A DNA stretch of 34,713 bases from Candidatus Micrarchaeota archaeon (GCA_964559795.1 CAZLIX010000001.1:1-34713); one strand, 5' to 3'; positions 1,399 through 20,772 are shown, numbered from the stretch's first letter. Numbers and translations: made by a program. The notes: generated from the letters alone by a model not told the origin.

Positions 1399-2929
1399 TG
1401 CATCTTATTTGGAAAAAAAGACAAATAAAAAAAGAGAGGAGATTGGTAGGATTTTGGGGCTTTTGGGTTTACCAAATGAATTAGATGGGGAAAAATTTGT
1501 AATAGAGGTCACTCCAAATCGGCCGGATTGCTATCTTGCACAAGGAATTATTAGGGTTATAAACTCCTATTTTAAAAAAAATGAAAAATATAAATGTAAA
1601 GATTTAGATTATTTAATAAAGGTTGAAAAAAATATAAAAAAAATAAGGCCATATATAAGCGCGTGTGTAATAAAAAATGTAGAATTAAATGATAATGAAA
1701 TAGAAATGCTTATAGATGCGCAGGAGAAAATGCATGATACTTTTGGAAGAAAAAGAAAAAAACTTGCGATCGGAATTCATAATTTAGATGTTATTAACTT
1801 TCCTTTGATATATGGTTGTGTAAAAGAGTTTAATTTTACTCCTTTGGATTTTGAAAATAGGATGAGCATTGGAGAAATTCTTGAAAAGCATCCAAAAGGA
1901 ATAGAATATGAAAAACTTGTTTTGAAAGGAAAATATCCTTTAATTTATGAGGAAAATAGTAAAGAAGTAATCTCTTTTCCACCAATAATTAATGAGGAGA
2001 GAACAAAATTAAAAAAAGGAGTAAAAAATATTTTTATAGAAGTTACCGGAACCCATAAGGAAAGTGTTGAAAGCGCGATGAATATACTTTGCTGTTCTAT
2101 AAAAGATATTGGAGGAGAAATATATTTTGTAAAAATAAATGATGAAAAGCATCCTAAACTAGAGTATAAAAAAGAAAAAATAAATAAAAATAAGATAAAT
2201 AAAGTGCTTGGATTAAAATTAAATGAAAAAGAAATATCATCTGCCCTTGAGAAAATGGGATATTTTATTGAAGGAAAAACAATTTTAATTCCTCCTTATA
2301 GGGCAGATATCATAAATTATATAGATATTATTGAGGATATTGCTATTGGATATGGATATGAAAATTTTAAGCCTACTATCCCAGATTTTTATTGTAGTGG
2401 GGTTTTGGGTAAAAAAAGCATTATGGAAAAACAAATTAGAGAAATTATGAATGGCCTTGGTTTTATTGAGGTTATGAATACTGTTTTGGTTGATAAGCCT
2501 GCAACAGATAAGGCAATAAAAATAATTAATCCGTGTACTTTAGATGTTGCATATTTGCGGGATAATTTGTTTGAATCAATTATGCGAAATTTAAATGATA
2601 ATAAAATGAAGGGTATTCCTCAAAAAATTTATGAAATTGGAATAGATTATGAAGATAGAATTGAAAGAAAAAAGATTTCTTTTGGGATAATGGATAAAAA
2701 AATAGATTTTAATGAAATAAAAAGTTTTTCACAAAAAATTATTTTTGAATTGGGTTTGAAGGACAAAATTTCTTTTGAAAAATTAGAGAGTAATAAATTT
2801 AATGAAGGTGCTGCTTCCTTATTTTTTGGAAAGGAAAAAATTGGAGAATTTGGGGAGGTTTCAAAAAAAGAGCTAGAAAGAAGAAATATTGAATTTGAGA
2901 TAGGGTTTTTTGAAATGAATATAAACTGA
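1379..2929 (+). CDS. pheT: Phenylalanine-tRNA ligase beta subunit, archaeal type
   Basis: MAVINVDASYLEK..., EVTPNRPDC (B3/4 domain), IPPYRADI and archaeal-length architecture. The likely start is ATG 1379 rather than the tracked 1310, and it overlaps the purF stop. Confidence 0.85.
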   Translation: MAVINVDASYLEKKTNKKREEIGRILGLLGLPNELDGEKFVIEVTPNRPDCYLAQGIIRVINSYFKKNEKYKCKDLDYLIKVEKNIKKIRPYISACVIKNVELNDNEIEMLIDAQEKMHDTFGRKRKKLAIGIHNLDVINFPLIYGCVKEFNFTPLDFENRMSIGEILEKHPKGIEYEKLVLKGKYPLIYEENSKEVISFPPIINEERTKLKKGVKNIFIEVTGTHKESVESAMNILCCSIKDIGGEIYFVKINDEKHPKLEYKKEKINKNKINKVLGLKLNEKEISSALEKMGYFIEGKTILIPPYRADIINYIDIIEDIAIGYGYENFKPTIPDFYCSGVLGKKSIMEKQIREIMNGLGFIEVMNTVLVDKPATDKAIKIINPCTLDVAYLRDNLFESIMRNLNDNKMKGIPQKIYEIGIDYEDRIERKKISFGIMDKKIDFNEIKSFSQKIIFELGLKDKISFEKLESNKFNEGAASLFFGKEKIGEFGEVSKKELERRNIEFEIGFFEMNIN

Positions 2930-2949
2930 CACCCTACACTTCCACTATT

Positions 2950-3186
2950 TTATAGATCTTCAATAAATTTGGTTTGTAATTTATATACTTCAATATCTGG
3001 TTTGAAAGAAACAAAAAAAGAATCAATAATTTGTTCTATTTCAGGAGGAACTACGAGAACAGATTTTGTTTTCCAATATGATTTTTTTAGATTTAATTTA
3101 TTAAAATGGTAATAAAACCTTCGTTTTAATTTGTTGTATTCTTTTGGATTTTTTGGTTTTAAATCATAAAAATAAACATAAAACAT
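2950..3186 (-). CDS. Small hypothetical protein, candidate Cas2/VapD-like ferredoxin fold
   Basis: 78 aa. It has an N-terminal beta-strand ending in Asp (MFYVYFYDL), a basic helix (KEYNKLKRRF), then KSVLVVPP and EVYKL strands, resembling the Cas2 pattern. Weak, by eye only. Confidence 0.35.
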   Translation of the reverse strand: MFYVYFYDLKPKNPKEYNKLKRRFYYHFNKLNLKKSYWKTKSVLVVPPEIEQIIDSFFVSFKPDIEVYKLQTKFIEDL

Positions 3187-3215
3187 AATAGTATTTAATT
3201 AAATAAATATATAAA

Positions 3216-3231
3216 TGTAACTATGGTTACA
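3216..3231. promoter_or_regulatory. Inverted repeat TGTAAC-N4-GTTACA in the divergent Cas2-like/hef intergenic region
   Basis: Read directly. It is the only non-AT-only symmetric element in the 142-nt spacer. Confidence 0.2.
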
Positions 3232-3328
3232 ATTATTTTTTAATAATTATAAAAATAATTAGTTATTTAATTATGGAACTTTGGCCCCCTACTACTATTT
3301 TATTTTTTTGCATATCTTAATCTTATTA

Positions 3329-4804
3329 ATGATAACCACACCACGAGAATATCAAACAAATATCTATACCTCTATTCTCAGACACGGCAATACTCTTGTT
3401 GTTCTTCCAACTGGCCTTGGAAAAACTCTTATTGCAATAATGCTTATTGAAAAAAAACACCTCGTTGGAAAAATACTTTTTCTTTCCCCAACAAAACCAT
3501 TAATTGAACAGCATTTTAATTCAGTTACTCAAGAACTAAACGATCTAAAAGATTTTGTAACTATAGTTACAGGAAACACCCAACCTTCAAAAAGAAAAAA
3601 AGAATATGAAAAAAAAATCATCCTTTCAACCCCACAAACAATAAGAAATGATATTAATAATGGTCTTTTTGATCCAAATTCTCTTTCACTTGTAGTTTTT
3701 GACGAAGCACATAGGGCAGTTGGGGACTATGCATATACCCAAATTTCAAAAAAACTAACCACACAAACCCTTGTTCTAGGGCTTACTGCATCCCCCGGCG
3801 GGAAAAAGGAGCACATAGAAGAGGTTTTATCAAATCTTAATATTTCAAACATAGAGCTTAAACTTTCAACAGATAAGGACATTCTCCCATATATTCATAA
3901 AACCACTATCAATTGGGAATTTGTAAACCTTCCACCAAAATATTTAGAATTTAAAATAGAGCTTGATGATTTAATTAAAAAATATTCAAAAACACTAGCT
4001 CTTTTTGGTTTTACACCAATAATAAAATCAAAAACCCTATTTCTCCAATTACAAAACAAAATAATAAATTCCAAAAACAACAAAAAATATCTAATATTAA
4101 TGTATTATTCTATTCTTTTAAATTTGCTTCATATGGTTGAACTTCTAGAAACACAATCACTTTCAACTCTTAAAAAATATCTCTTAAAATTATCTGAAAA
4201 AGAATCAAAATCATCAAAAATTTTATTAAATAACCCAACAATAAAAAAAATCATAAAAGAAGAGGATATATTACACCCAAAACTTATTTTACTAACAAAT
4301 ATTGTAAAAGAACTATCCAAATCAAACAAAAAAGGAATAATTTTTGCCCAATACAGAGAGCAGGTAAAACAAATTTCAACACACCTAAACAATAATTCTA
4401 TTTTGGCAAAGGAATTTATGGGAAAAAAAGAGGAATATACAAGAAAAATGCAGGAAGAAACGATAAGAGAATTTAGGGAAGGCAAATTCAATTTTTTATG
4501 TTCTTCTTCAATTGGAGAAGAAGGCCTAGATATCCCATCTGTGGATGTAGTAATATTTTATGAGCCGATACCAAGCGAAATTCGTTCAATACAACGCAGA
4601 GGCAGAACAGGTAGGTTTTCCCAAGGTCAAGTATATATTTTAATAACAAAAAACAGCAGAGATGAATATTTTTATTGGGCATCAATAAATCGGGAAAAGA
4701 AAATGAAATCAATTCTCACATCTTTTGATAAAAAAACAGAAAAAGAGGAAAAACAACCCATACGCGGAAAAAAAATAGGACAAACTAAATTGGATTTATT
4801 CTAA
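3329..4804 (+). CDS. hef: Hef/FANCM/Mph1-family SF2 helicase, helicase module only (no ERCC4 nuclease domain)
   Basis: REYQ, LPTGLGKTLIA (Walker A), VFDEAHRAVGDYAY (DEAH), GLTASPG, SSSIGEEGLDIP, IQRRGRTGR. The likely start is ATG 3329 (tracked start 3281 is TTG). It ends in GQTKLDLF. Confidence 0.85.
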   Translation: MITTPREYQTNIYTSILRHGNTLVVLPTGLGKTLIAIMLIEKKHLVGKILFLSPTKPLIEQHFNSVTQELNDLKDFVTIVTGNTQPSKRKKEYEKKIILSTPQTIRNDINNGLFDPNSLSLVVFDEAHRAVGDYAYTQISKKLTTQTLVLGLTASPGGKKEHIEEVLSNLNISNIELKLSTDKDILPYIHKTTINWEFVNLPPKYLEFKIELDDLIKKYSKTLALFGFTPIIKSKTLFLQLQNKIINSKNNKKYLILMYYSILLNLLHMVELLETQSLSTLKKYLLKLSEKESKSSKILLNNPTIKKIIKEEDILHPKLILLTNIVKELSKSNKKGIIFAQYREQVKQISTHLNNNSILAKEFMGKKEEYTRKMQEETIREFREGKFNFLCSSSIGEEGLDIPSVDVVIFYEPIPSEIRSIQRRGRTGRFSQGQVYILITKNSRDEYFYWASINREKKMKSILTSFDKKTEKEEKQPIRGKKIGQTKLDLF

Positions 4805-5380: not shown

Positions 5381-6022
5381 ATGCATCTTGAAAAAGCACT
5401 TAGTTCTCTTAGAAAGGGAAAAATAATCCTAGTTTATGATTCTGACGATCGCGAGTGTGAAGCAGATATGATGTTTAATGCAAAATTCATATCCCCTAAA
5501 AAAATAGAAACCCTGCGAAAAGATGCCGGAGGCCTTATATGTCTTGCAATTTCAAAAAAAATTGCAAAAAAACTTGGCCTTGAATTTTTCAGCGACATTA
5601 TTGCAAATTCAAAATCAAAATTAAAACAAATGGATTGCAAAAAAACAGCATACGGAGACAAACCCGCATTTTCAATTGCAATAAACCACAAAAAGGTTTA
5701 CACGGGAATTACTGATAATGATCGCAGCCTAACAATAAAATCATTTTCCAAATTACTAAATTCAAAAAATCCAAAAAACAAATTTTTTAAGTCATTTTAT
5801 ACACCCGGCCACGTATTTCTTTTAATTGGAAGAGGAATTGAAAAAAGAAAAGGCCACACGGAACTGTCTTTAGAGCTTGCAAAAAAAGCAAATCTTCCAG
5901 AAATTATGGTTTTATGTGAAATGCTTGGAAAAGGAAAAGCGCTCAAAAAAGAAAAAGTAAAATTATATGCAAAAAAAAATAACCTGGAATATTTAAGTGG
6001 ACGTGAAATATATGAAAAATAA
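5381..6022 (+). CDS. ribB: 3,4-dihydroxy-2-butanone-4-phosphate synthase
   Basis: GKIILVYDSDDRECEADMMF, DAGGLICLAIS, PGHVFLL, GHTE. Confidence 0.9.
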   Translation: MHLEKALSSLRKGKIILVYDSDDRECEADMMFNAKFISPKKIETLRKDAGGLICLAISKKIAKKLGLEFFSDIIANSKSKLKQMDCKKTAYGDKPAFSIAINHKKVYTGITDNDRSLTIKSFSKLLNSKNPKNKFFKSFYTPGHVFLLIGRGIEKRKGHTELSLELAKKANLPEIMVLCEMLGKGKALKKEKVKLYAKKNNLEYLSGREIYEK

Positions 6023-6911
6023 TAAGATAAAAATAGGATTAGTAGATACAATGTTTTCAAGGGTAAATATGGGGAAAATTGCAATAGATGAACTTGAAAC
6101 AAAATATGGAGATAAAATTGAAATAAAAAGAAAAACGGTTCCTGGGATAAAAGATCTTGGCGTGGAATGCAAAATTCTTTTAGATGGTGGTTGTGATATT
6201 GCAATGGCACTTGGTATGGTTGGCGGAGCACCAATAGACACCCAATGCGCTCATGAAGCATCACTTGGTATCCAACAAACAAAACTTTTGACAAATAAAC
6301 ATATAATTGAGGTGTTTGTCCATGAAAATGAGGGTTGGAATGAACAAGAATTTTTCGAAATATGCAATAATCGGATAAGAAAGCACGCTCAAAATGCAAT
6401 ACTGATTTCAACAAATCCAGATAAATTAATTTCTCTTGCAGGAAAAGGAATAAGACAAGGAAAAGAAGATGAAGGAGAAATAGTTGAAAAATGCAACATG
6501 CCAATTACAATCTCAATTGCCATCTCAGATTTTAATGAAGAAATAACAAAAGAAATGGAATTTAGTGCAGTTGAATATGCAAAAAAACAAAACATAACAA
6601 TCTTTCAAATAATCCATGTTCCAGGGGCTTATGATATTCCACTTGCAGCAAAAAAATTACTGTTAGACAAAAAAACCGATGCTATAGTTACCCTTGGCGC
6701 AATAATAAAAGGAGATACAAAACACGATGAAGTAATCGCCAATTCAACAGCAATTTCTTTGACTAAATTATCTCTTGAAGCAAATAAGCCAATTGCACTT
6801 GGGATAATAGGTCCTGATGCAACAGAAAAACAAGCAAAAGACAGGGCAAAAGAATATGCAAAAAGAGCAGTTGATGCTGCCATAATTCTTGTAAAAAGAT
6901 TGAGAAGATAA
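6012..6911 (+). CDS. ribC/ribH: Fusion protein: archaeal-type riboflavin synthase (N-terminal half) + 6,7-dimethyl-8-ribityllumazine synthase (C-terminal half)
   Basis: The N-terminal half matches archaeal RibC (IGLVDTMFSRVNMG, RKTVPGIKDL, CAHEASLG, TNKHIIEVFVHE, AGKGIRQG). The C-terminal half, from Met at nt 6498, matches RibH (ISIAISDFNEEIT, HVPGAYDIPLAAKKLL, DAIVTLGAIIKGDTKHDE, LGIIGP). There is no stop between the halves. Confidence 0.85.
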   Translation: MKNNKIKIGLVDTMFSRVNMGKIAIDELETKYGDKIEIKRKTVPGIKDLGVECKILLDGGCDIAMALGMVGGAPIDTQCAHEASLGIQQTKLLTNKHIIEVFVHENEGWNEQEFFEICNNRIRKHAQNAILISTNPDKLISLAGKGIRQGKEDEGEIVEKCNMPITISIAISDFNEEITKEMEFSAVEYAKKQNITIFQIIHVPGAYDIPLAAKKLLLDKKTDAIVTLGAIIKGDTKHDEVIANSTAISLTKLSLEANKPIALGIIGPDATEKQAKDRAKEYAKRAVDAAIILVKRLRR

Positions 6912-7492: not shown

Positions 7493-8550
7493 AAAAACAA
7501 GAAAAATGCTTCATGTCTATCGCCCTATACCTTGCAGATAAGGGTTTTCCTTCTCCAAACCCTTATGTTGGTGCAGTTTTAGTAAAAGACAATAAAATTA
7601 TAGGAAAAGGATTCCATAAAAAGGCAGGTATGCACCATGCAGAAATTGAAGCAATAAACTCAGTTAAGAATAAATCAAAAATAGCAGGATCGACGTTATA
7701 TGTAACCTTAGAACCCTGCTCTCATTATGGCAAAACTCCTCCATGCACAGATGCAATCCTAAAATATAAAATAAAAAAAGTTGTTTTTGCAGCAAAAGAC
7801 CCAACAAAAAAAATAAAAGGCGAAGAAATTCTAAAAAAAAATAAAATAATTGTCGTTTCTAAAGTATTAGAAAAAGAAGCAAAAAAACAAAATGAAATTT
7901 TTTTTCACTATTCCAAAACAAAAAAACCATTTGTCGCCATAAAGGCAGCATCAACTAAAGATGGTTTTATAGGTTGCATTCATAAAACTAGAAAAATAAC
8001 AAATAAATTATCTGATAAATTTTCCCATAAGTTAAGGTCAAAATATGATGCGATTCTAGTAGGTGCAAACACAGTAATTTTAGATAATCCGTATTTAACC
8101 TCCAGAGTTTTACCCTATAAAAATCCTTTACGTATAGTACTAGACAATTCCCTAAAAATACCCCCAAATTCAAATATTTTAAAAGATAAAAATGTTCTTG
8201 TTGCAACAACAAATAGAGCAGATGAACGCAAATTATTATTTTTAAGAAAAAAAGGATTTGAGGTTGCAGTTTTAGGAAAAAATATAGTGAATCTAAGAAA
8301 ACTCCTAGTTTATCTTGGAAAAAGAGGAATAACCTCTCTTTTAGTTGAAGGAGGCTCAAAAATACATGAGGCATTTTTAAAAGAACGCTTAGCAAATAAG
8401 ATATATTTATTTATTTCAAAAAAACAGCTTAGGCAGGGCGTGTTATTATTTAACAATTATCAATTGAAAGATTACTATACAGATCAAATCCAAATATTTG
8501 GTTCAGATACGTTAAATATATTATATCCAAAAAATCCAAATCTATCTTAA
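7489..8550 (+). CDS. ribD: Bifunctional diaminohydroxyphosphoribosylaminopyrimidine deaminase / 5-amino-6-(5-phosphoribosylamino)uracil reductase
   Basis: CDA zinc motifs HAEIEAI and TLEPCSHYGKTPPC, then a reductase half (ILVGANTV, LLVEGGSKI). The ATG overlaps the ribA TGA (ATATGA). Confidence 0.9.
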   Translation: MKKQEKCFMSIALYLADKGFPSPNPYVGAVLVKDNKIIGKGFHKKAGMHHAEIEAINSVKNKSKIAGSTLYVTLEPCSHYGKTPPCTDAILKYKIKKVVFAAKDPTKKIKGEEILKKNKIIVVSKVLEKEAKKQNEIFFHYSKTKKPFVAIKAASTKDGFIGCIHKTRKITNKLSDKFSHKLRSKYDAILVGANTVILDNPYLTSRVLPYKNPLRIVLDNSLKIPPNSNILKDKNVLVATTNRADERKLLFLRKKGFEVAVLGKNIVNLRKLLVYLGKRGITSLLVEGGSKIHEAFLKERLANKIYLFISKKQLRQGVLLFNNYQLKDYYTDQIQIFGSDTLNILYPKNPNLS

Positions 8551-8590
8551 ATTTCAAAAAGATTCAAATCCAAATAATTTAAAGGTATTT

Positions 8591-9700
8591 ATGCTATCTT
8601 TATCTATGAGATCTAATCTTCTGGAAGATGCAATAAAAAATAAGGAGAAAATCTTGGTTGCTCAAATCGCTCCTGCAGTGCGCGTAAGCATCGGAGAATG
8701 TTTTGGAAAAAAACCAGGAGAAATAATGACAAAAAAACTTATTTGTGCGCTAAGAAAAATAGGTTTTGATTATGTTTTTGACAAAAGCTTTGGCGCAGAT
8801 GTTGCAATAACGGAGGAATGCGCAGAATTTGAAGAAAAATTAAAAAAAAATGGGCCGTTTCCAATGATAAATTCTTGTTGCCCCGGAACAGTTTCATTTA
8901 TAGAGCATTCCTACCCAGAACTTATTCCTAACGTAGCAACTGTAAAAAGCCCGATGGAAATCGTAGGTTCATTAATTAAAACAGTGTTTTGCAAAGAAAA
9001 AAACATATCTCCTGAAAAAATCTGCTCTGTTGCAATAATGCCCTGTACTATAAAAAAAGCAGAAGCGCTAAGGCCTGAATTAAGAATGGATGGAAAATTA
9101 GTTATAGATGGGGTCTTAACTACAAAAGAGTTAGCAGAAATAATAAAAGAAAAAAAAATCGATATTGAAAAATGTTCTGATTCTGAATTTGATCAAATGC
9201 TCGGTGTAGCTTCTGGAGGAGGAATTATCTTTGGCTCAAGCGGAGGGGTATGTGAGGCAAGCATTAGAAAATATGCTTCAAAAAACAACTTTCCAATAGA
9301 AAAAATCGAAACGAAAAAGCTTAGAAGTTCTGATGGTATTAGGGAAATATTTTTTGATATCTGCGGAAAAAAAATAAATGTTGCAATAATAAACTCCCTT
9401 AGAAACGCCGCAATCTTGTTAAACGACAAGGAAAAAATAAGCAGATTTCATTTTATTGAAATAATGGCCTGCCTTGGGGGATGTGTAGGAGGAGCAGGTC
9501 AGCCCATATCCACGCTTGATGCAATAGAACAAAGAAGAAAAGCGCTCTATTCTATTGATTCAAATTTAAAAATAAAAACATCAGATGAAAATCCAGAAAT
9601 AAAACTATTATACGAAAAATATTTGGGCGCACCTGGAGGCAGAAAAGCCAAAAAAATATTGCATACCGCATTTGATAAAATATGTACGGATTGCTGTTAA
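8591..9700 (+). CDS. hydA: [FeFe]-hydrogenase-like H-cluster domain protein, minimal (no F-cluster domains)
   Basis: AQIAPAVRVSIGE, FGADV, NSCCPG, MPCTIKKAE, GGVCEA, EIMACLGGCVGGAGQP, and a small-subunit-like tail ENPEIKLLYEKYLG. Confidence 0.85.
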   Translation: MLSLSMRSNLLEDAIKNKEKILVAQIAPAVRVSIGECFGKKPGEIMTKKLICALRKIGFDYVFDKSFGADVAITEECAEFEEKLKKNGPFPMINSCCPGTVSFIEHSYPELIPNVATVKSPMEIVGSLIKTVFCKEKNISPEKICSVAIMPCTIKKAEALRPELRMDGKLVIDGVLTTKELAEIIKEKKIDIEKCSDSEFDQMLGVASGGGIIFGSSGGVCEASIRKYASKNNFPIEKIETKKLRSSDGIREIFFDICGKKINVAIINSLRNAAILLNDKEKISRFHFIEIMACLGGCVGGAGQPISTLDAIEQRRKALYSIDSNLKIKTSDENPEIKLLYEKYLGAPGGRKAKKILHTAFDKICTDCC

Positions 9701-10233
9701 ATAAAAAATCACTTGAAAATCCATGCAGCGAATGCAATGCGCTCTGCTGCAAAAATTATGCAGTAACATTAACTTCATTTGATATTTTAAGGATTTATAA
9801 AAAAATTTCTTCTTTTGATTTTATAGATTTGGTTAATTCTGATAATTTTGATACATGCCTTGCTCAAAACATTATTTTTTTTGAAAAAAAAATCCCAAAA
9901 GAATATTATCTTACACTTAAAAGAAAAAGGAACGGGAGCTGTATTTTTCTAGGCAAAGATAATCTTTGCACAATTTATAAAGAAAGGCCAATGGTCTGCA
10001 GATTATATCCTTTTAAGTTTGAAAATGGAGAAATTCTTGCAAAAGAGCAAATACGCTGTCAGCATAATTGGCAGCTTAGTTCTGAAATGAAAAAAAATCT
10101 TTTCAAAATAAAAGAACAGCAGCAAAAAGAGCTTAAATTATTCGGGATTTTAGCTAGAAAATGGAATTCTGCTTTCTCAAAAGAAGGAAATCTTTCTTCT
10201 TTTTTAGAATTTATTTTTTCAGAAAAGATATAA
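9682..10233 (+). CDS. YkgJ/UPF0153-family Cys-cluster (Fe-S or Zn) protein
   Basis: CSECNALCC near the N-terminus, then GSCIFL...CTIYKERPMVCRLYPF. Overlaps the hydrogenase ORF by 19 nt. Confidence 0.7.
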   Translation: MYGLLLNKKSLENPCSECNALCCKNYAVTLTSFDILRIYKKISSFDFIDLVNSDNFDTCLAQNIIFFEKKIPKEYYLTLKRKRNGSCIFLGKDNLCTIYKERPMVCRLYPFKFENGEILAKEQIRCQHNWQLSSEMKKNLFKIKEQQQKELKLFGILARKWNSAFSKEGNLSSFLEFIFSEKI

Positions 10234-11260: not shown

Positions 11261-11360
11261 GGGCCCGTAGCTCAATCTGGATAGAGCTTTCGGCTTCGGA
11301 AGCCGACTCCAAATTGCTGGAGAAACCGAAGGGTTGCGGGTTCAAATCCCGTCGGGCTCG
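11261..11360 (+). tRNA. tRNA-Arg(UCG): tRNA-Arg (anticodon UCG at 11296-11298) with a 25-nt intron (11300-11324) at the canonical 37/38 position
   Basis: Hand fold:
- acceptor GGGCCCG/CGGGCTC (one G-U)
- D arm GCTC-AATCTGGATA-GAGC
- anticodon stem TTCGG/CCGAA, interrupted by extra sequence
- variable loop GGGTT
- T arm GCGGG-TTCAAAT-CCCGT
- discriminator G; no encoded CCA. Confidence 0.85.
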
Positions 11361-17288: not shown

Positions 17289-18518
17289 ATGATTACAAGT
17301 AATGAAATAATATCACTTATTTATAATGGTGAAACACAAAAAATAATGGACCGCGGTATAGAATCAGCGGATTTATTATTTGAAATATTAAAAGATCCTA
17401 CTGCAATCATATGCTATTCCTTGTATTATAATACTTCTAGTGGGGCTATTAATTTTCAAGTAAATAATATACTTGCTCAAATCGCAAAAAAAGAAGATGC
17501 TGTTTTTTTAAAACTAATACATAACCTCAAATCCGAAAATTATCCTCTAATAAAAAACAGCATAATCGTCCTTGGCATAGTGGCAGATAAAAGAGCTACT
17601 ATCCCATTGCTAGTCTCATTTTTAAATTTAAGTGAGAATCATCAAAGTGAAATAATCCAGTCTCTTGGAAAAATTGCAAAATGCAATGAAGAATCCTTTA
17701 ATTTTTTACACAAAATATTTTTTGATTTAGAATTCATCCATTTCAAAAAACTCGGACCATTTTGTGCGCTTGCTCTTGGGCTTTGCGGATTTTCAGAGGT
17801 TTCGAACTATCTTTTTTCCAATAAATTTGAAAATGGCAATCTAGATAATCTGCGCGATGGTGCTATAGCTGAAATATGTAAAAATGACCCAAATACATTT
17901 AGAAAGGTTATAGAGGGGCTTTTTGAAGAAAACCCCAAAAGCAGCATGTGCACACGTATTTTGCTCATTTTATATCACGATCCACAATGCAACTTTTCGA
18001 GCCTTTTTACAGGATTTTTAGATGAAAATAATACTCTTTCTCAAAAATGCCTATTGCTTCTTGAAAAAAAAGGCCTTTTTTTAGAACATGCGAAAATATG
18101 CGCAATTCGTATTCTTGCAAACCTCAAAGATAAAACCTCTGTTGATCTTTTGATTTCACTGATGCTAAAAAAAGATAGGGATCTTTCACATGAGGCTGCA
18201 AAGGCACTTGAACAAATAAATGATTCGAAAGGATTGTCATTAAAGAAAATTATTTATGATAAGGACAAGGAATATATCAGAATGGTCGGACTCAAACATT
18301 CAATAGTGGTACTCTGCGAGTATCTTCATATAATAGAGGGATGCATTACAAAAGAAGAGCAAAATTTGATTAAAATAGAATTCTTATCTCTTTTTAGAAA
18401 TTCAATCAACAGTTCAGTAAAAAACAAATCTGAACTTGATTTACTCCATTCTTCCATAAGAAGAAAACCACCAATATTACATAACAGGGCATTACGTATG
18501 CGTTCTTGCAATTTTTAA
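17289..18518 (+). CDS. HEAT-repeat (PBS-lyase-like) protein, function unknown
   Basis: Repeated pattern such as [23 protein letters not shown] and [41 protein letters not shown]. Confidence 0.5.
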
Positions 18519-18577
18519 AATTGCAGGCATTTGGTTTATATATTTTTTCCCATCCAAATACTATTAAGAGGTTACAT

Positions 18578-19459
18578 ATGCAAGATAAAGACTTTTTATT
18601 AAAATCTGGCTTAGCTCAAATGCTAAAAGGCGGGGTAATAATGGATGTTACAAACTCAGAGCAGGCAAAAATTGCAGAAAAAGCAGGCGCAGTAAGCGTT
18701 ATGGCGCTTGAAAGGGTTCCAGCAGATATAAGGGCCCAAGGAGGAGTTGCAAGAATGTCTGATCCAAAAATGATTCTTGAAATAAAAAAAGCAGTAACAA
18801 TTCCAGTAATGGCAAAATGTAGGATAGGCCATTTTGCAGAAGCGCAGGTTCTTGAAGCAATAAAAGTAGATTATATAGATGAAAGCGAAGTTTTAACCCC
18901 TGCAGATGATAAATACCATATTCAAAAATATAAATTTAAAGTTCCATTCGTATGTGGCGCAAGAAATTTGGGAGAAGCCCTAAGAAGAATAAATGAAGGG
19001 GCGGCAATGATAAGAACAAAAGGAGAAGCAGGATCAGGAAATATCGTTGAGGCAGTAAAACATATAAGAACAATAAAAGAAGAAATAGAATCCCTTGAAA
19101 AAATGTCTGCAAAAGAACTCGAGAAGTGTGCAAAAGATTATAAGGTTCCATTAGAATTGGTAAAAAAAGTCAAAGAATTAAAAAGGCTTCCAGTAGTAAA
19201 TTTTGCAGCAGGAGGAATTGCAACCCCTGCAGATGCTGCGCTTTGTATGCAGCTTGGCGTTGATGGCGTTTTTGTTGGTTCTGGAATTTTTAAATCACAA
19301 GACCCGCAAAAAAGGGCAAAGGCAATAGTTGATGCAACAGCCCATTTTAATGATCCTTTAAGTGTTGCAAAAGCTTCAGAAGGCTTAGGAGATGCGATGA
19401 GAGGGCTTGATATTGCATCAATGAAAGAAGAAGACAGGCTTGCAAAAAGAGGAATCTGA
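18578..19459 (+). CDS. pdxS: Pyridoxal 5'-phosphate synthase, synthase subunit
   Basis: [74 protein letters not shown] 18578 is preceded by AAGAGG; the tracked 18506 start is an upstream extension. Confidence 0.95.
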
Positions 19460-20219
19460 ATTGAAATACTATTCTTTTTTAAAAAAGCTTACCTTTGATG
19501 CAGGAAAGATAATTGAAAGAGGGTATTTTGGAAAAATAGAATACAGTGAAAAAAACCCACAAGACTATGTTACTCAATTTGATTTTCAAACTGAAAAATT
19601 CCTAAAAGAAAAAATCGCAGAAAAATTTCCATACCACGATATTCTTGCAGAGGAAAGCGGACAAGAAAATATTTCTTCAAAATATCAATGGATAATAGAT
19701 CCAATAGATGGGACAACTAATTTTATTCATAAAATTCCATTGTGCGCAATTTCAATTGCACTTGAATATAAAAAAACCCCTATTGCAGGCGCAATATACA
19801 ATCCCATAACAAAAGAACTATTTTATGCAGAAAAAGGAAAAGGCGCATATCTAAATGGGAAAAAAATTCATATAAAATCAGATAAAAAAATGGAAAACTG
19901 GTTTCTTGCATGGTGTTATCCAGATTCAATGCGAAATGAAAAAAATGTAAAAAAAATATTTCGGCTTTTTTATCCAAAATGCCTTAGGGTTACAAAGCTT
20001 GGAAGCGCTGCAATTGAGCTTGCTTATGTTTCTTCTGGAAGAATAGATGGTTATATTTCAATAGGCCTGAAAAAATGGGATTATGCGGCAGGAGAGCTTA
20101 TAGTTTCTGAGGCAGGCGGAATTCTTTTAAAAGAAAAGCTTGGAAAAGACACCCTTTTCATTGCTTCTTCAAAAGAAAACGCCAAGAAAATACTTCGGAT
20201 GATTAAAAATGGAATTTAA
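19440..20219 (+). CDS. suhB: Inositol monophosphatase / fructose-1,6-bisphosphatase family phosphatase (start uncertain: TTG 19440 or TTG 19461)
   Basis: [27 protein letters not shown] motifs. There is no in-frame ATG near the 5' end. Confidence 0.85.
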
Positions 20220-20772
20220 GATCGGAATTTTAGCTCTTCAAGGAGATGTAATAGAGCATATCAATGCAACAAAAAATGCAATAAAAGAACTAGGTATTGA
20301 TGCAAAAGCAATTGAAGTAAGAACAAAAAAAGATCTTGAAAATTTAGATGCTCTTATAATTCCAGGAGGAGAAAGCACAACCCTAATGAAGCTTCTTGCA
20401 AGAGAAGATATGATTGAAAAAATCAGAAAAATAAAAAACATCTTTGGAACCTGCGCTGGCGCAATTTTAATTTCAAAATCTCATCTCAACCTTATGGATA
20501 TTGAAATTGAAAGAAATGCCTATGGTTCGCAGCTTGATTCATTTTCAAAAAAAATCTGGTCTGTTTTTGGAGATATTGAAGGTATTTTCATAAGGGCTCC
20601 GAAAATAAAATCATTTTGTAGCAGTGTTACAATATTTGCAAAAGATAAAAATGAGGTAGTTGGAGTCGAACAAGAAAAAAATGGCAAGTACTATCTTGCA
20701 ATTGCATTCCACCCCGAACTGATAAACACCTCAGTCCATAAGTATTTTCTTAGAAAAATAAAAGGAAATTAG
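20209..20772 (+). CDS. pdxT: Pyridoxal 5'-phosphate synthase, glutaminase subunit
   Basis: IGILALQGDVIEH, LIIPGGESTT, GTCAGAILIS (catalytic Cys), FHPEL. Confidence 0.9.
   Translation: MEFKIGILALQGDVIEHINATKNAIKELGIDAKAIEVRTKKDLENLDALIIPGGESTTLMKLLAREDMIEKIRKIKNIFGTCAGAILISKSHLNLMDIEIERNAYGSQLDSFSKKIWSVFGDIEGIFIRAPKIKSFCSSVTIFAKDKNEVVGVEQEKNGKYYLAIAFHPELINTSVHKYFLRKIKGN

Follow-up and report, generated by a model that had tools for sequence, protein, structure and literature searches.

The question raised by this locus is whether a member of the Micrarchaeota encodes a working [FeFe] hydrogenase that is reduced to its catalytic, H-cluster-binding domain (H-domain), and whether the cysteine-rich protein specified by the overlapping gene is a partner of this enzyme. 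The locus lies in a 34,713-nucleotide (nt) stretch of Candidatus Micrarchaeota archaeon (GCA_964559795.1; CAZLIX010000001.1:1-34713), which we call the window throughout, and comprises hydA, at 8591-9700, and a ykgJ-family gene, at 9682-10233, both on the + strand like all other features of the two genes described below. An initial annotation, made from the sequence alone, had called the first gene a minimal [FeFe] hydrogenase and had proposed that the product of the second is a co-translated metal-cluster protein replacing the missing electron-relay domains. The first proposal is borne out by our analysis, which indicates that the product of hydA is very probably a group A [FeFe] hydrogenase of Micrarchaeota that is monomeric, consists of the H-domain only (M1 type) and belongs to the published minimal group A1 clade. 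The second, a dedicated partnership between hydA and YkgJ, is not supported by the gene neighbourhoods compared here.

Domain structure and start of hydA

The longest open reading frame (ORF) of hydA encodes 369 amino acids (aa), of which residues 20-302 (8648-9496) match the Pfam profile PF02906 (Fe_hyd_lg_C) over its full length (E 2.1e-81, model positions 1-245 of 245) and residues 310-361 (9518-9673) match PF02256 (Fe_hyd_SSU; E 1.7e-18, model positions 2-53 of 56), a small-subunit-like segment, characteristic of group A, that aligns with the C-terminal part of Clostridium pasteurianum CpI and of T. kivui HydA. These matches, as well as the family match of YkgJ given below, are far beyond chance. 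Just as initially described, the H-domain begins about 20 residues from the start of the ORF and accessory iron-sulfur cluster (F-cluster) domains are absent. A ferredoxin domain hidden upstream by a frameshift was considered and rejected, since only 40 nt separate hydA from the preceding gene, ribD. The NCBIfam model TIGR02512 (FeFe_hydrog_A) is matched with an E-value of 1.5e-103 over positions 77-374 of 375, and HydA scores under the curated cut-offs of this database, with 346.6 bits against 405.95 for TIGR02512 and 420.9 against 765 for NF040763, because only the H-domain part is matched when the N-terminal F-cluster domains are missing, not because the protein is divergent.

Comparison with solved structures leads to the same fold. 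A search of the PDB with HydA finds CpI and the HydA subunit of HydABC at E-values of about 1e-88, and the best solved relatives, T. kivui HydABC HydA, HydA2 of the hydrogen-dependent CO2 reductase (HDCR) and CpI, score 298-306 bits over residues 9-363. The AlphaFold2 model of HydA, built on a 29-sequence alignment, has a mean predicted local distance difference test score (pLDDT) of 89.2 and a predicted template modelling score of 0.90. In Foldseek it matches the H-domains of CpI, CbA5H and HydABC HydA with query-normalised template modelling (TM) scores of 0.90-0.93 and root-mean-square deviations (rmsd) of 1.8-1.9 Å over about 365 columns, CpI itself giving a TM score of 0.92 and an rmsd of 1.8 Å. 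The match spans just 55-60% or so of the target proteins, which fits a protein that lacks their N-terminal cluster domains.

Homologues of HydA begin with the motif MRPxLL, which aligns to M6 of the 369-aa ORF, and the true start codon is probably the second ATG, at 8606, giving a protein of 364 aa like these homologues. The spacer between ribD and hydA contains a TATA-box-like element, ATAATTTAAAG (8574-8584), as a putative hydA promoter; in the form AATAATTTAAAG it is conserved at 7965-7976 of the sister locus L010 (JBAZMS010000001.1, 'Candidatus Micrarchaeia archaeon isolate SO_2017_LW4_49', 408 kb), which was found in a scan of GTDB species representatives. The distance from the start of its TTTAAA core to the ATG is 28 nt in the window (ATG 8606) and 31 nt in the sister locus (ATG 8001), and the first hydA ATG, at 8591, lies only 13 nt past the start of this core. 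The conserved element and the position of the homologues' N-termini together suggest that hydA probably has its own promoter and that its transcript is leaderless or nearly so, as judged from the spacing. A scan for sigma-70 promoters and terminators showed no enrichment; the sigma-70 model is not relevant to archaea.

Relative to the sister species, HydA is 77% identical, DNA polymerase B (PolB) 80% and YkgJ 55%, with ratios of nonsynonymous to synonymous substitution rates (dN/dS) of about 0.12 for hydA, 0.08 for PolB and about 0.15 for ykgJ; the values for hydA and ykgJ are only rough because synonymous sites are saturated. Both genes are clearly under constraint.

Catalytic residues and the proton pathway

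The assignment of catalytic residues is based on a residue-by-residue alignment of HydA with CpI, in which the numbering offset is constant at +203 through residue 230, and on conservation counts in an alignment of 29 short relatives, referred to here as the clade. All the motif strings quoted in the initial annotation are found in the ORF, and the family signatures xSCCPxx (L1), MPCxxKxxE (L2) and ExMxCxxGCxxGxGQP (L3) are all represented. The L1 motif NSCCPG occupies residues 94-99 (8870-8887) and the L2 motif MPCTIKKAE residues 150-158 (9038-9064), both at the positions first given; the L3 motif, EIMACLGGCVGGAGQP, is likewise present but had been placed one residue too early, at 289-304, and lies at residues 290-305 (9458-9505). 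Within these motifs, C97, C152 and C294 correspond to the [4Fe-4S]H ligands C300, C355 and C499 of CpI, C298 to C503, the ligand that bridges to [2Fe]H in CpI, and C96 to C299, the proton-relay cysteine, so that the claim of four cluster-ligating cysteines and a proton-relay cysteine holds. Second-sphere residues are equally well matched, with M150, K155, M292, P121 and F214 at the positions of CpI M353, K358, M497, P324 and F417. The five cysteines and the equivalents of K358, M353, M497 and P324 are invariant in all 29 clade members. In the proton pathway, E76 and E79 correspond to CpI E279 and E282, which are conserved in 28 and 26 of the 29 sequences, respectively.

The departures from CpI are found at S319, R286 and Q325, which are replaced by A116, K83 and M122. 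The canonical proton pathway E279-S319-E282(-R286) is hence incomplete in HydA, with alanine at the S319 position (codon at 8936-8938) and lysine at the R286 position. S319 has been termed strictly conserved, and the S319A mutant of CpI keeps 6% of its activity (PMC6226526). In the clade, however, this column is variable, with 11 Ala, 9 Cys, 4 Ser, 3 Val and 2 Gly, and the residue that follows it (T117 in HydA) is Thr or Ser in 28 of 29 sequences; T117 might substitute for the missing serine. Archaeal [FeFe] enzymes that differ at proton-transfer residues are nevertheless active (PMC11216029). Because of this activity and of the variation within the clade, A116 is best read as a clade-level variant of the proton path and would not be a sign of inactivity. 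A highly active Micrarchaeota relative exists although the clade varies at this position, that enzyme's own residue being outside the comparison. HydA may thus be regarded as a natural experiment on the proton pathway, carrying alanine at a position described as strictly conserved.

Relatives and class of the enzyme

A large protein search with HydA returned about 30 proteins of 336-373 aa that contain PF02906 and PF02256 only and are 41-76% identical to HydA; those that carry names are assigned to Candidatus Iainarchaeota, Micrarchaeota or Diapherotrites, and some of the close matches are nameless. After these short relatives come multi-domain group A enzymes of 440-640 aa from bacteria and Woesearchaeota, at 42-50% identity. 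In a neighbour-joining tree of the H-domain region, all short proteins save one form a single clade of about 28 members of 336-368 aa, and HydA and its relative of 76% identity are nested inside it, apart from the 440-640-aa enzymes. A representative-library search shows that H-domain-only forms occur in several lineages. The same library contains P0126, a predicted protein of 4122 residues with seven separate H-domain-like stretches, which may be a eukaryotic or mis-predicted gene model.

These features agree with those of the minimal group A1 [FeFe] hydrogenases of archaea, which contain the H-cluster domain only, average 363 aa and are found in Iainarchaeota, Micrarchaeota and Nanoarchaeota (Greening et al., Cell 2024; PMC11216029). 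Like the enzymes of Micrarchaeota UBA95 ('Mu') and Ca. Iainarchaeum andersonii ('Ia'), HydA consists of the H-domain without F-clusters and, at 364-369 aa, is close to the average length of the class; it is encoded by a lone hydA without hydB or hydC, in a Micrarchaeota host and with no maturase genes nearby, and it keeps the five conserved cysteines while its proton-path residues are varied. It differs in belonging to a distinct species, the closest relative that we found, in the sister organism, being 77% identical. The initial annotation had linked the gene to ultraminimal forms recently reported from DPANN and other archaea. A minimal DPANN enzyme it appears to be, but of the A1 class of about 363 aa and not of the ultraminimal group E of about 286 aa. 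The group E enzyme of Ca. Forterrea multitransposorum (Fm) is, as HydA would be, a monomeric DPANN enzyme with a single [4Fe-4S] cluster and a [2Fe] subsite, but this group has shortened loops and an average length of 286 aa, its closest characterised homologue being a group C enzyme at 28% identity (PMC11216029), whereas HydA has a full-size H-domain and a small-subunit-like tail and groups with group A.

Two further enzymes help to place HydA. CpI (group A1, M3 type; PDB 4XDC) is 41-42% identical over the H-domain and C-terminal segment, as measured by Foldseek and by a phmmer alignment of HydA residues 9-363 with CpI 212-574, and has the same L1, L2 and L3 cysteines and the same residues at K358, M353, M497, E279 and E282. 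HydA lacks the N-terminal 210 residues of CpI, which bear the clusters FS4A, FS4B, FS4C and FS2, and besides the replacements described above has alanine for S232 and an additional C-terminal CxxC tail. HydA1 of Chlamydomonas reinhardtii (M1 type; PDB 3LX4, 6GM5) is an H-domain-only enzyme like HydA, and the direct transfer of electrons from ferredoxin to [4Fe-4S]H, established for HydA1, would apply to HydA as well. HydA1 is eukaryotic, has HydEF and HydG encoded in its genome and, at 457 aa, is about 90 residues longer; phmmer aligns it in two separate pieces, which suggests that HydA1 contains an inserted segment without a counterpart in HydA.

The class to which HydA very probably belongs was published in 2024 and is biochemically validated, so that HydA adds one species to it. 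The locus appears to supply one more intact Micrarchaeota minimal [FeFe] hydrogenase under purifying selection and leaves the 2024 picture unchanged; in practical terms it may be of use to biotechnology as a further H2 catalyst of very small size (about 40 kDa).

Genomic context of the locus

The window genes were taken from its list of ORFs of at least 90 aa, and the resulting 33 ORFs were all scanned against Pfam. The archaeal surroundings noted initially are confirmed by genes for a family B DNA polymerase, PCNA, FEN1/XPG, an archaeal-type phenylalanyl-tRNA synthetase (PheRS) beta subunit and a Hef-like helicase; other window genes include a riboflavin operon and pdxS/pdxT. The riboflavin operon flanks hydA on one side, and ykgJ and a Na/Ca exchanger gene flank it on the other. 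The window and the sister contig share the order of fourteen consecutive genes, which run from purF to the ORF that follows polB and have amino acid identities from 35% to 92%, and the shared neighbourhood spans 17 kb. This collinearity places the window in Micrarchaeota.

The Pfam scan of the 34.7-kb window agrees with the initial annotation in that none of the 33 ORFs is a radical-SAM HydE/HydG or HydF-like protein. Nor did the window ORFs include a gene for pyruvate:ferredoxin oxidoreductase (PFOR) or, in any real ORF, a ferredoxin-type cysteine motif. A full HydEFG set occurs in 5 of 130 archaeal genomes that carry hydA (PMC11216029), and since the other 125 are without it, the absence of these maturases from a 35-kb window is the expected state.

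Catalysis and its alternatives

On the basis of the sequence and the comparison with CpI, C97, C152, C294 and C298 would hold the [4Fe-4S] subcluster, with C298 bridging to the [2Fe] subsite, while C96 would hand protons to the bridging amine and K155, M150 and M292 would form the conserved second sphere. Because there are no accessory F-clusters, the cubane is expected to be exposed to solvent and to be reduced directly by a soluble carrier of low potential, most probably ferredoxin. The gene would be transcribed from its own promoter and translated from ATG 8606, and ykgJ is very probably transcribed with it, which is best explained by packing in a compact genome and not by a dedicated partnership. 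The [2Fe] subsite would have to be supplied either by HydEFG proteins whose genes lie outside the window or through the as yet unknown pathway that has been proposed for most archaea with hydA. The enzyme would dispose of surplus fermentation reductant as H2, in line with the re-oxidation of ferredoxin in fermentation that is predicted for archaeal A1 hydrogenases (PMC11216029).

Several points weigh against this interpretation. With alanine at the S319 position, where the same change leaves CpI only 6% of its activity, and with R286 and Q325 replaced by Lys and Met, the rates or the proton routing of HydA may differ. The placement in A1 relies on length, architecture, taxon labels and a neighbour-joining tree that lacks published reference sequences or HydDB. 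H-cluster binding, H2 turnover and the in vivo direction of catalysis are predictions, and the survey for HydEFG, ferredoxin and PFOR covers just the 34.7-kb window.

The replaced proton-path residues, and a window without maturase genes, could also be expected of a protein that binds a cluster without useful H2 turnover, be it Nar1/NARF-like, sensory or degenerate. We consider it very unlikely that HydA is such a non-catalytic relative. The H-cluster ligands, the proton-relay cysteine and the equivalents of K358, M353, M497, E279 and E282 are all kept and are invariant or nearly so in the clade, strong purifying selection acts on hydA, and the top matches in sequence databases and among structures are genuine group A catalysts. 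Proteins of the Nar1 family carry an N-terminal ferredoxin-like cysteine cluster. Such a cluster is absent from HydA, whose only cysteines before residue 96, C37, C52 and C77, are not conserved in the clade; a Nar1-like identity was thus rejected, and the alignment with CpI confirms the H-cluster cysteines against the misassignment that had been feared. In addition, two group A1 enzymes, one from Micrarchaeota and one from Iainarchaeum, made H2 after loading with [2Fe]adt, and one of them ran at half the rate of Chlamydomonas HydA1 (CrHydA1) (PMC11216029). An active enzyme might instead serve chiefly to scavenge H2 supplied by a host or partner, and not to release it in fermentation, given that [FeFe] hydrogenases are bidirectional in vitro, that the archaeal group E enzyme gave both currents (PMC11216029) and that the window contains no PFOR or ferredoxin gene linking HydA to fermentation. 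However, those archaeal enzymes that have been characterised show a bias towards proton reduction, their hosts are predicted from the genomes to be obligate fermenters without respiratory reductases (PMC11216029), and no H2-oxidising electron acceptor module is encoded nearby, which makes a main role in uptake unlikely. The possibility that an assembly or binning error has put bacterial DNA carrying hydA into an archaeal contig deserves practically no credence. Bacterial group A enzymes do predominate among the nearest long-form relatives listed, which are 42-50% identical and in some cases labelled Woesearchaeota, but the proteins closest to HydA overall (52-77%) include some whose contigs carry the label Micrarchaeota, Iainarchaeota or Diapherotrites. 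The GC content is flat at 0.30-0.34 over the locus without any step, and the order of the 14 genes around hydA recurs in the sister contig, an independent assembly of a different sample, which rules out a chimeric join.

C-terminal tail and membrane-protein neighbours

Beyond the small-subunit-like segment, HydA ends in a clade-specific CxxC tail, C365-T-D-C368-C369 (9683-9697), that reaches past the C-terminus of CpI. In the clade it follows the pattern LHTxFxKxCxxC(F/Y/C), with the CxxC 1-3 residues from the C-terminus. The tail is present in 18-19 of the 29 clade proteins and at 13 of 14 archaeal loci, as compared with 5 of 227 long-form group A matches; the loci that share it include L001, L003, L004, L007, L008, L010, L011, L013, L015, L039 and L044. 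The AlphaFold2 model has a pLDDT of about 52 over this segment. The main text of the 2024 paper on archaeal hydrogenases (PMC11216029) does not mention it. The tail could be a metal, dimerisation or docking site.

Fifteen independent archaeal minimal-hydA loci (L001, L003, L004, L007, L008, L011, L012, L013, L015, L039, L044 and L170-L173; about 178 kb together) were available for comparison of the neighbouring genes. At 10 of them hydA stands beside a gene for a multi-pass membrane protein of about 180 aa that belongs to no Pfam family and is usually divergent and directly upstream of hydA. This gene is found in L004 (5448-6002, -), L007 (5409-5951, -), L008 (5411-5950, -), L003 (10443-10997, +), L171 (5398-5952, -) and L172 (5395-5952, -), and also in L011, L013, L039 and L044. 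In L171 and L172 an 84-aa ORF adjoins it. The protein is probably the 'hyd6TM' of Greening et al., and we refer to its gene as hyd6TM-like. The window lineage differs from most archaeal minimal-hydA loci in this respect, since neither the window, over its whole length, nor the sister locus has a hyd6TM-like gene. What is new here would lie in the CxxC tail, in a natural S319A-type proton path and in the differing neighbours, YkgJ in this lineage and hyd6TM in most others. The tail and these mutually exclusive neighbours may bear on how electrons are delivered and on how the H-cluster is built independently of HydEFG in archaea.

The ykgJ gene and its relation to hydA

The ORF that overlaps the end of hydA encodes a ykgJ-family cysteine-cluster protein of 183 aa (9682-10233), with a match to PF03692 (CxxCxxCC) at an E-value of 5.9e-13 and 49.8 bits against a cut-off of 23. 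The 19-nt overlap, at 9682-9700, is as first described, and the ATG of ykgJ straddles the codons of I364 and C365 of hydA (ATA TGT); an identical overlap is found in L010 and in L006, both from the sister organism. Like other members of the YkgJ/UPF0153/COG0727 family, the protein is small and soluble, with an N-terminal CxxCxx(x)CC motif and more conserved cysteines, and its orthologue in the sister species is named 'YkgJ family cysteine cluster protein' by NCBI. It differs in the CxxCxxxCC spacing of its N-terminal motif, CSECNALCC, and in a helical extension at the C-terminus, which includes a conserved KWN motif and is common to a YkgJ subfamily in several archaeal and other contexts. Eight cysteines, C15, C18, C22, C23, C87, C96, C106 and C126, are invariant in the four closest sequences. 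A PDB search with the YkgJ profile gave no meaningful match (best E 0.5), and an AlphaFold2 model from a four-sequence alignment, with a pLDDT of 54, was not used for a fold search. The next-closest proteins, P0124 and P0125, come from contigs of about 1 kb and are 38-41% identical in our alignment A2 and 37% by BLASTP; the neighbours of P0125 are on the opposite strand and the overlap arrangement is not kept there.

It is very likely that hydA and ykgJ are transcribed together. The further idea that YkgJ is a dedicated iron-sulfur partner, relaying electrons to an exposed [4Fe-4S]H or taking part in HydEFG-independent assembly of the H-cluster, is attractive because most hydA-bearing archaea are without HydEFG (PMC11216029), so that an unknown helper is expected; and the 19-nt overlap with its shared ATG position is conserved in the sister species, the eight cysteines are invariant, ykgJ is under purifying selection and the lineage is without the hyd6TM-like neighbour of other loci. 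The neighbourhood comparisons nevertheless make it improbable. Precomputed Pfam lists, tblastn, a motif search and a hidden Markov model built from 37 YkgJ relatives revealed no ykgJ gene next to hydA at any of the 15 independent minimal-hydA loci, and in a metagenome scan none of 79 other loci with YkgJ relatives had hydA within 4 kb, the sister contig being the only one of 80 that did. The recurrence in the sister species is not independent, because its whole neighbourhood is collinear with the window, and the adjacency, on whose presence in related genomes the partnership had been staked, recurs only in one collinear sister species. The overlap itself is likely to be normal gene packing, as, with each ORF taken from its longest start, 9 of the window's 26 pairs of co-directional neighbours share 4-89 nt, and these include functionally unrelated genes such as pdxS, an inositol monophosphatase gene and pdxT. 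YkgJ is also less conserved than HydA between the two species, and the main text of Greening et al. (PMC11216029) describes no PF03692 hydrogenase subunit. One other co-occurrence was seen in the roughly 178 kb, in L172 (CAZILS010000001.1), where a distant PF03692 gene (2383-3411, -) lies 2.6 kb from a minimal hydA. This gene, a member of another subfamily with only 20% identity, is on the opposite strand relative to hydA and is separated from it by three genes, a Na/Pi cotransporter gene and the hyd6TM-like pair; in our judgement the co-occurrence is probably due to chance. To our knowledge, no PF03692 member is a hydrogenase subunit or has a demonstrated hydrogenase link. A narrower version of the proposal holds that the eight-cysteine YkgJ was recruited as iron-sulfur partner of HydA specifically in this lineage without hyd6TM, to act in a HydEFG-independent maturation or as a detachable module through which electrons enter; it might then dock on the flexible CxxC tail of HydA, for example through a shared or bridging metal site. 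We regard this as a speculation with little chance of being right, somewhat less probable still than a partnership in the general sense.

The other YkgJ relatives have settings of their own. Some, on archaeal contigs of high GC content, have gatD/gatE-like genes beside them, and many are in low-GC contexts with small unassigned ORFs that look phage-like by eye. About 17 low-GC (0.26-0.31) loci within L094-L124 share a conserved small-ORF neighbourhood around the YkgJ homologue; by eye only, these small ORFs include NUDIX-like and P-loop kinase-like sequences and the contexts look phage- or mobile-element-like.

Other features of the window

A PHROGs scan gave a marginal match only. Rfam detects a 100-nt tRNA at 11261-11360 (+) with 52 bits, which is not detected by ARAGORN; by eye it resembles an archaeal tRNA, perhaps Arg(UCG), in which the anticodon loop is followed by an intron of about 25 nt. 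In the riboflavin region, a 304-aa ORF at 5997-6911 (+) contains two stretches resembling 6,7-dimethyl-8-ribityllumazine (DMRL) synthase, which correspond to two separate ORFs in the sister contig (5432-5893 and 5912-6316); the ORF is either a fusion or a lumazine synthase and an archaeal riboflavin synthase merged by the longest-ORF rule. Finally, in the region 18506-20772 (+) the inositol-monophosphatase-family gene stands between pdxS and pdxT and overlaps them by 20 nt and 11 nt, respectively.

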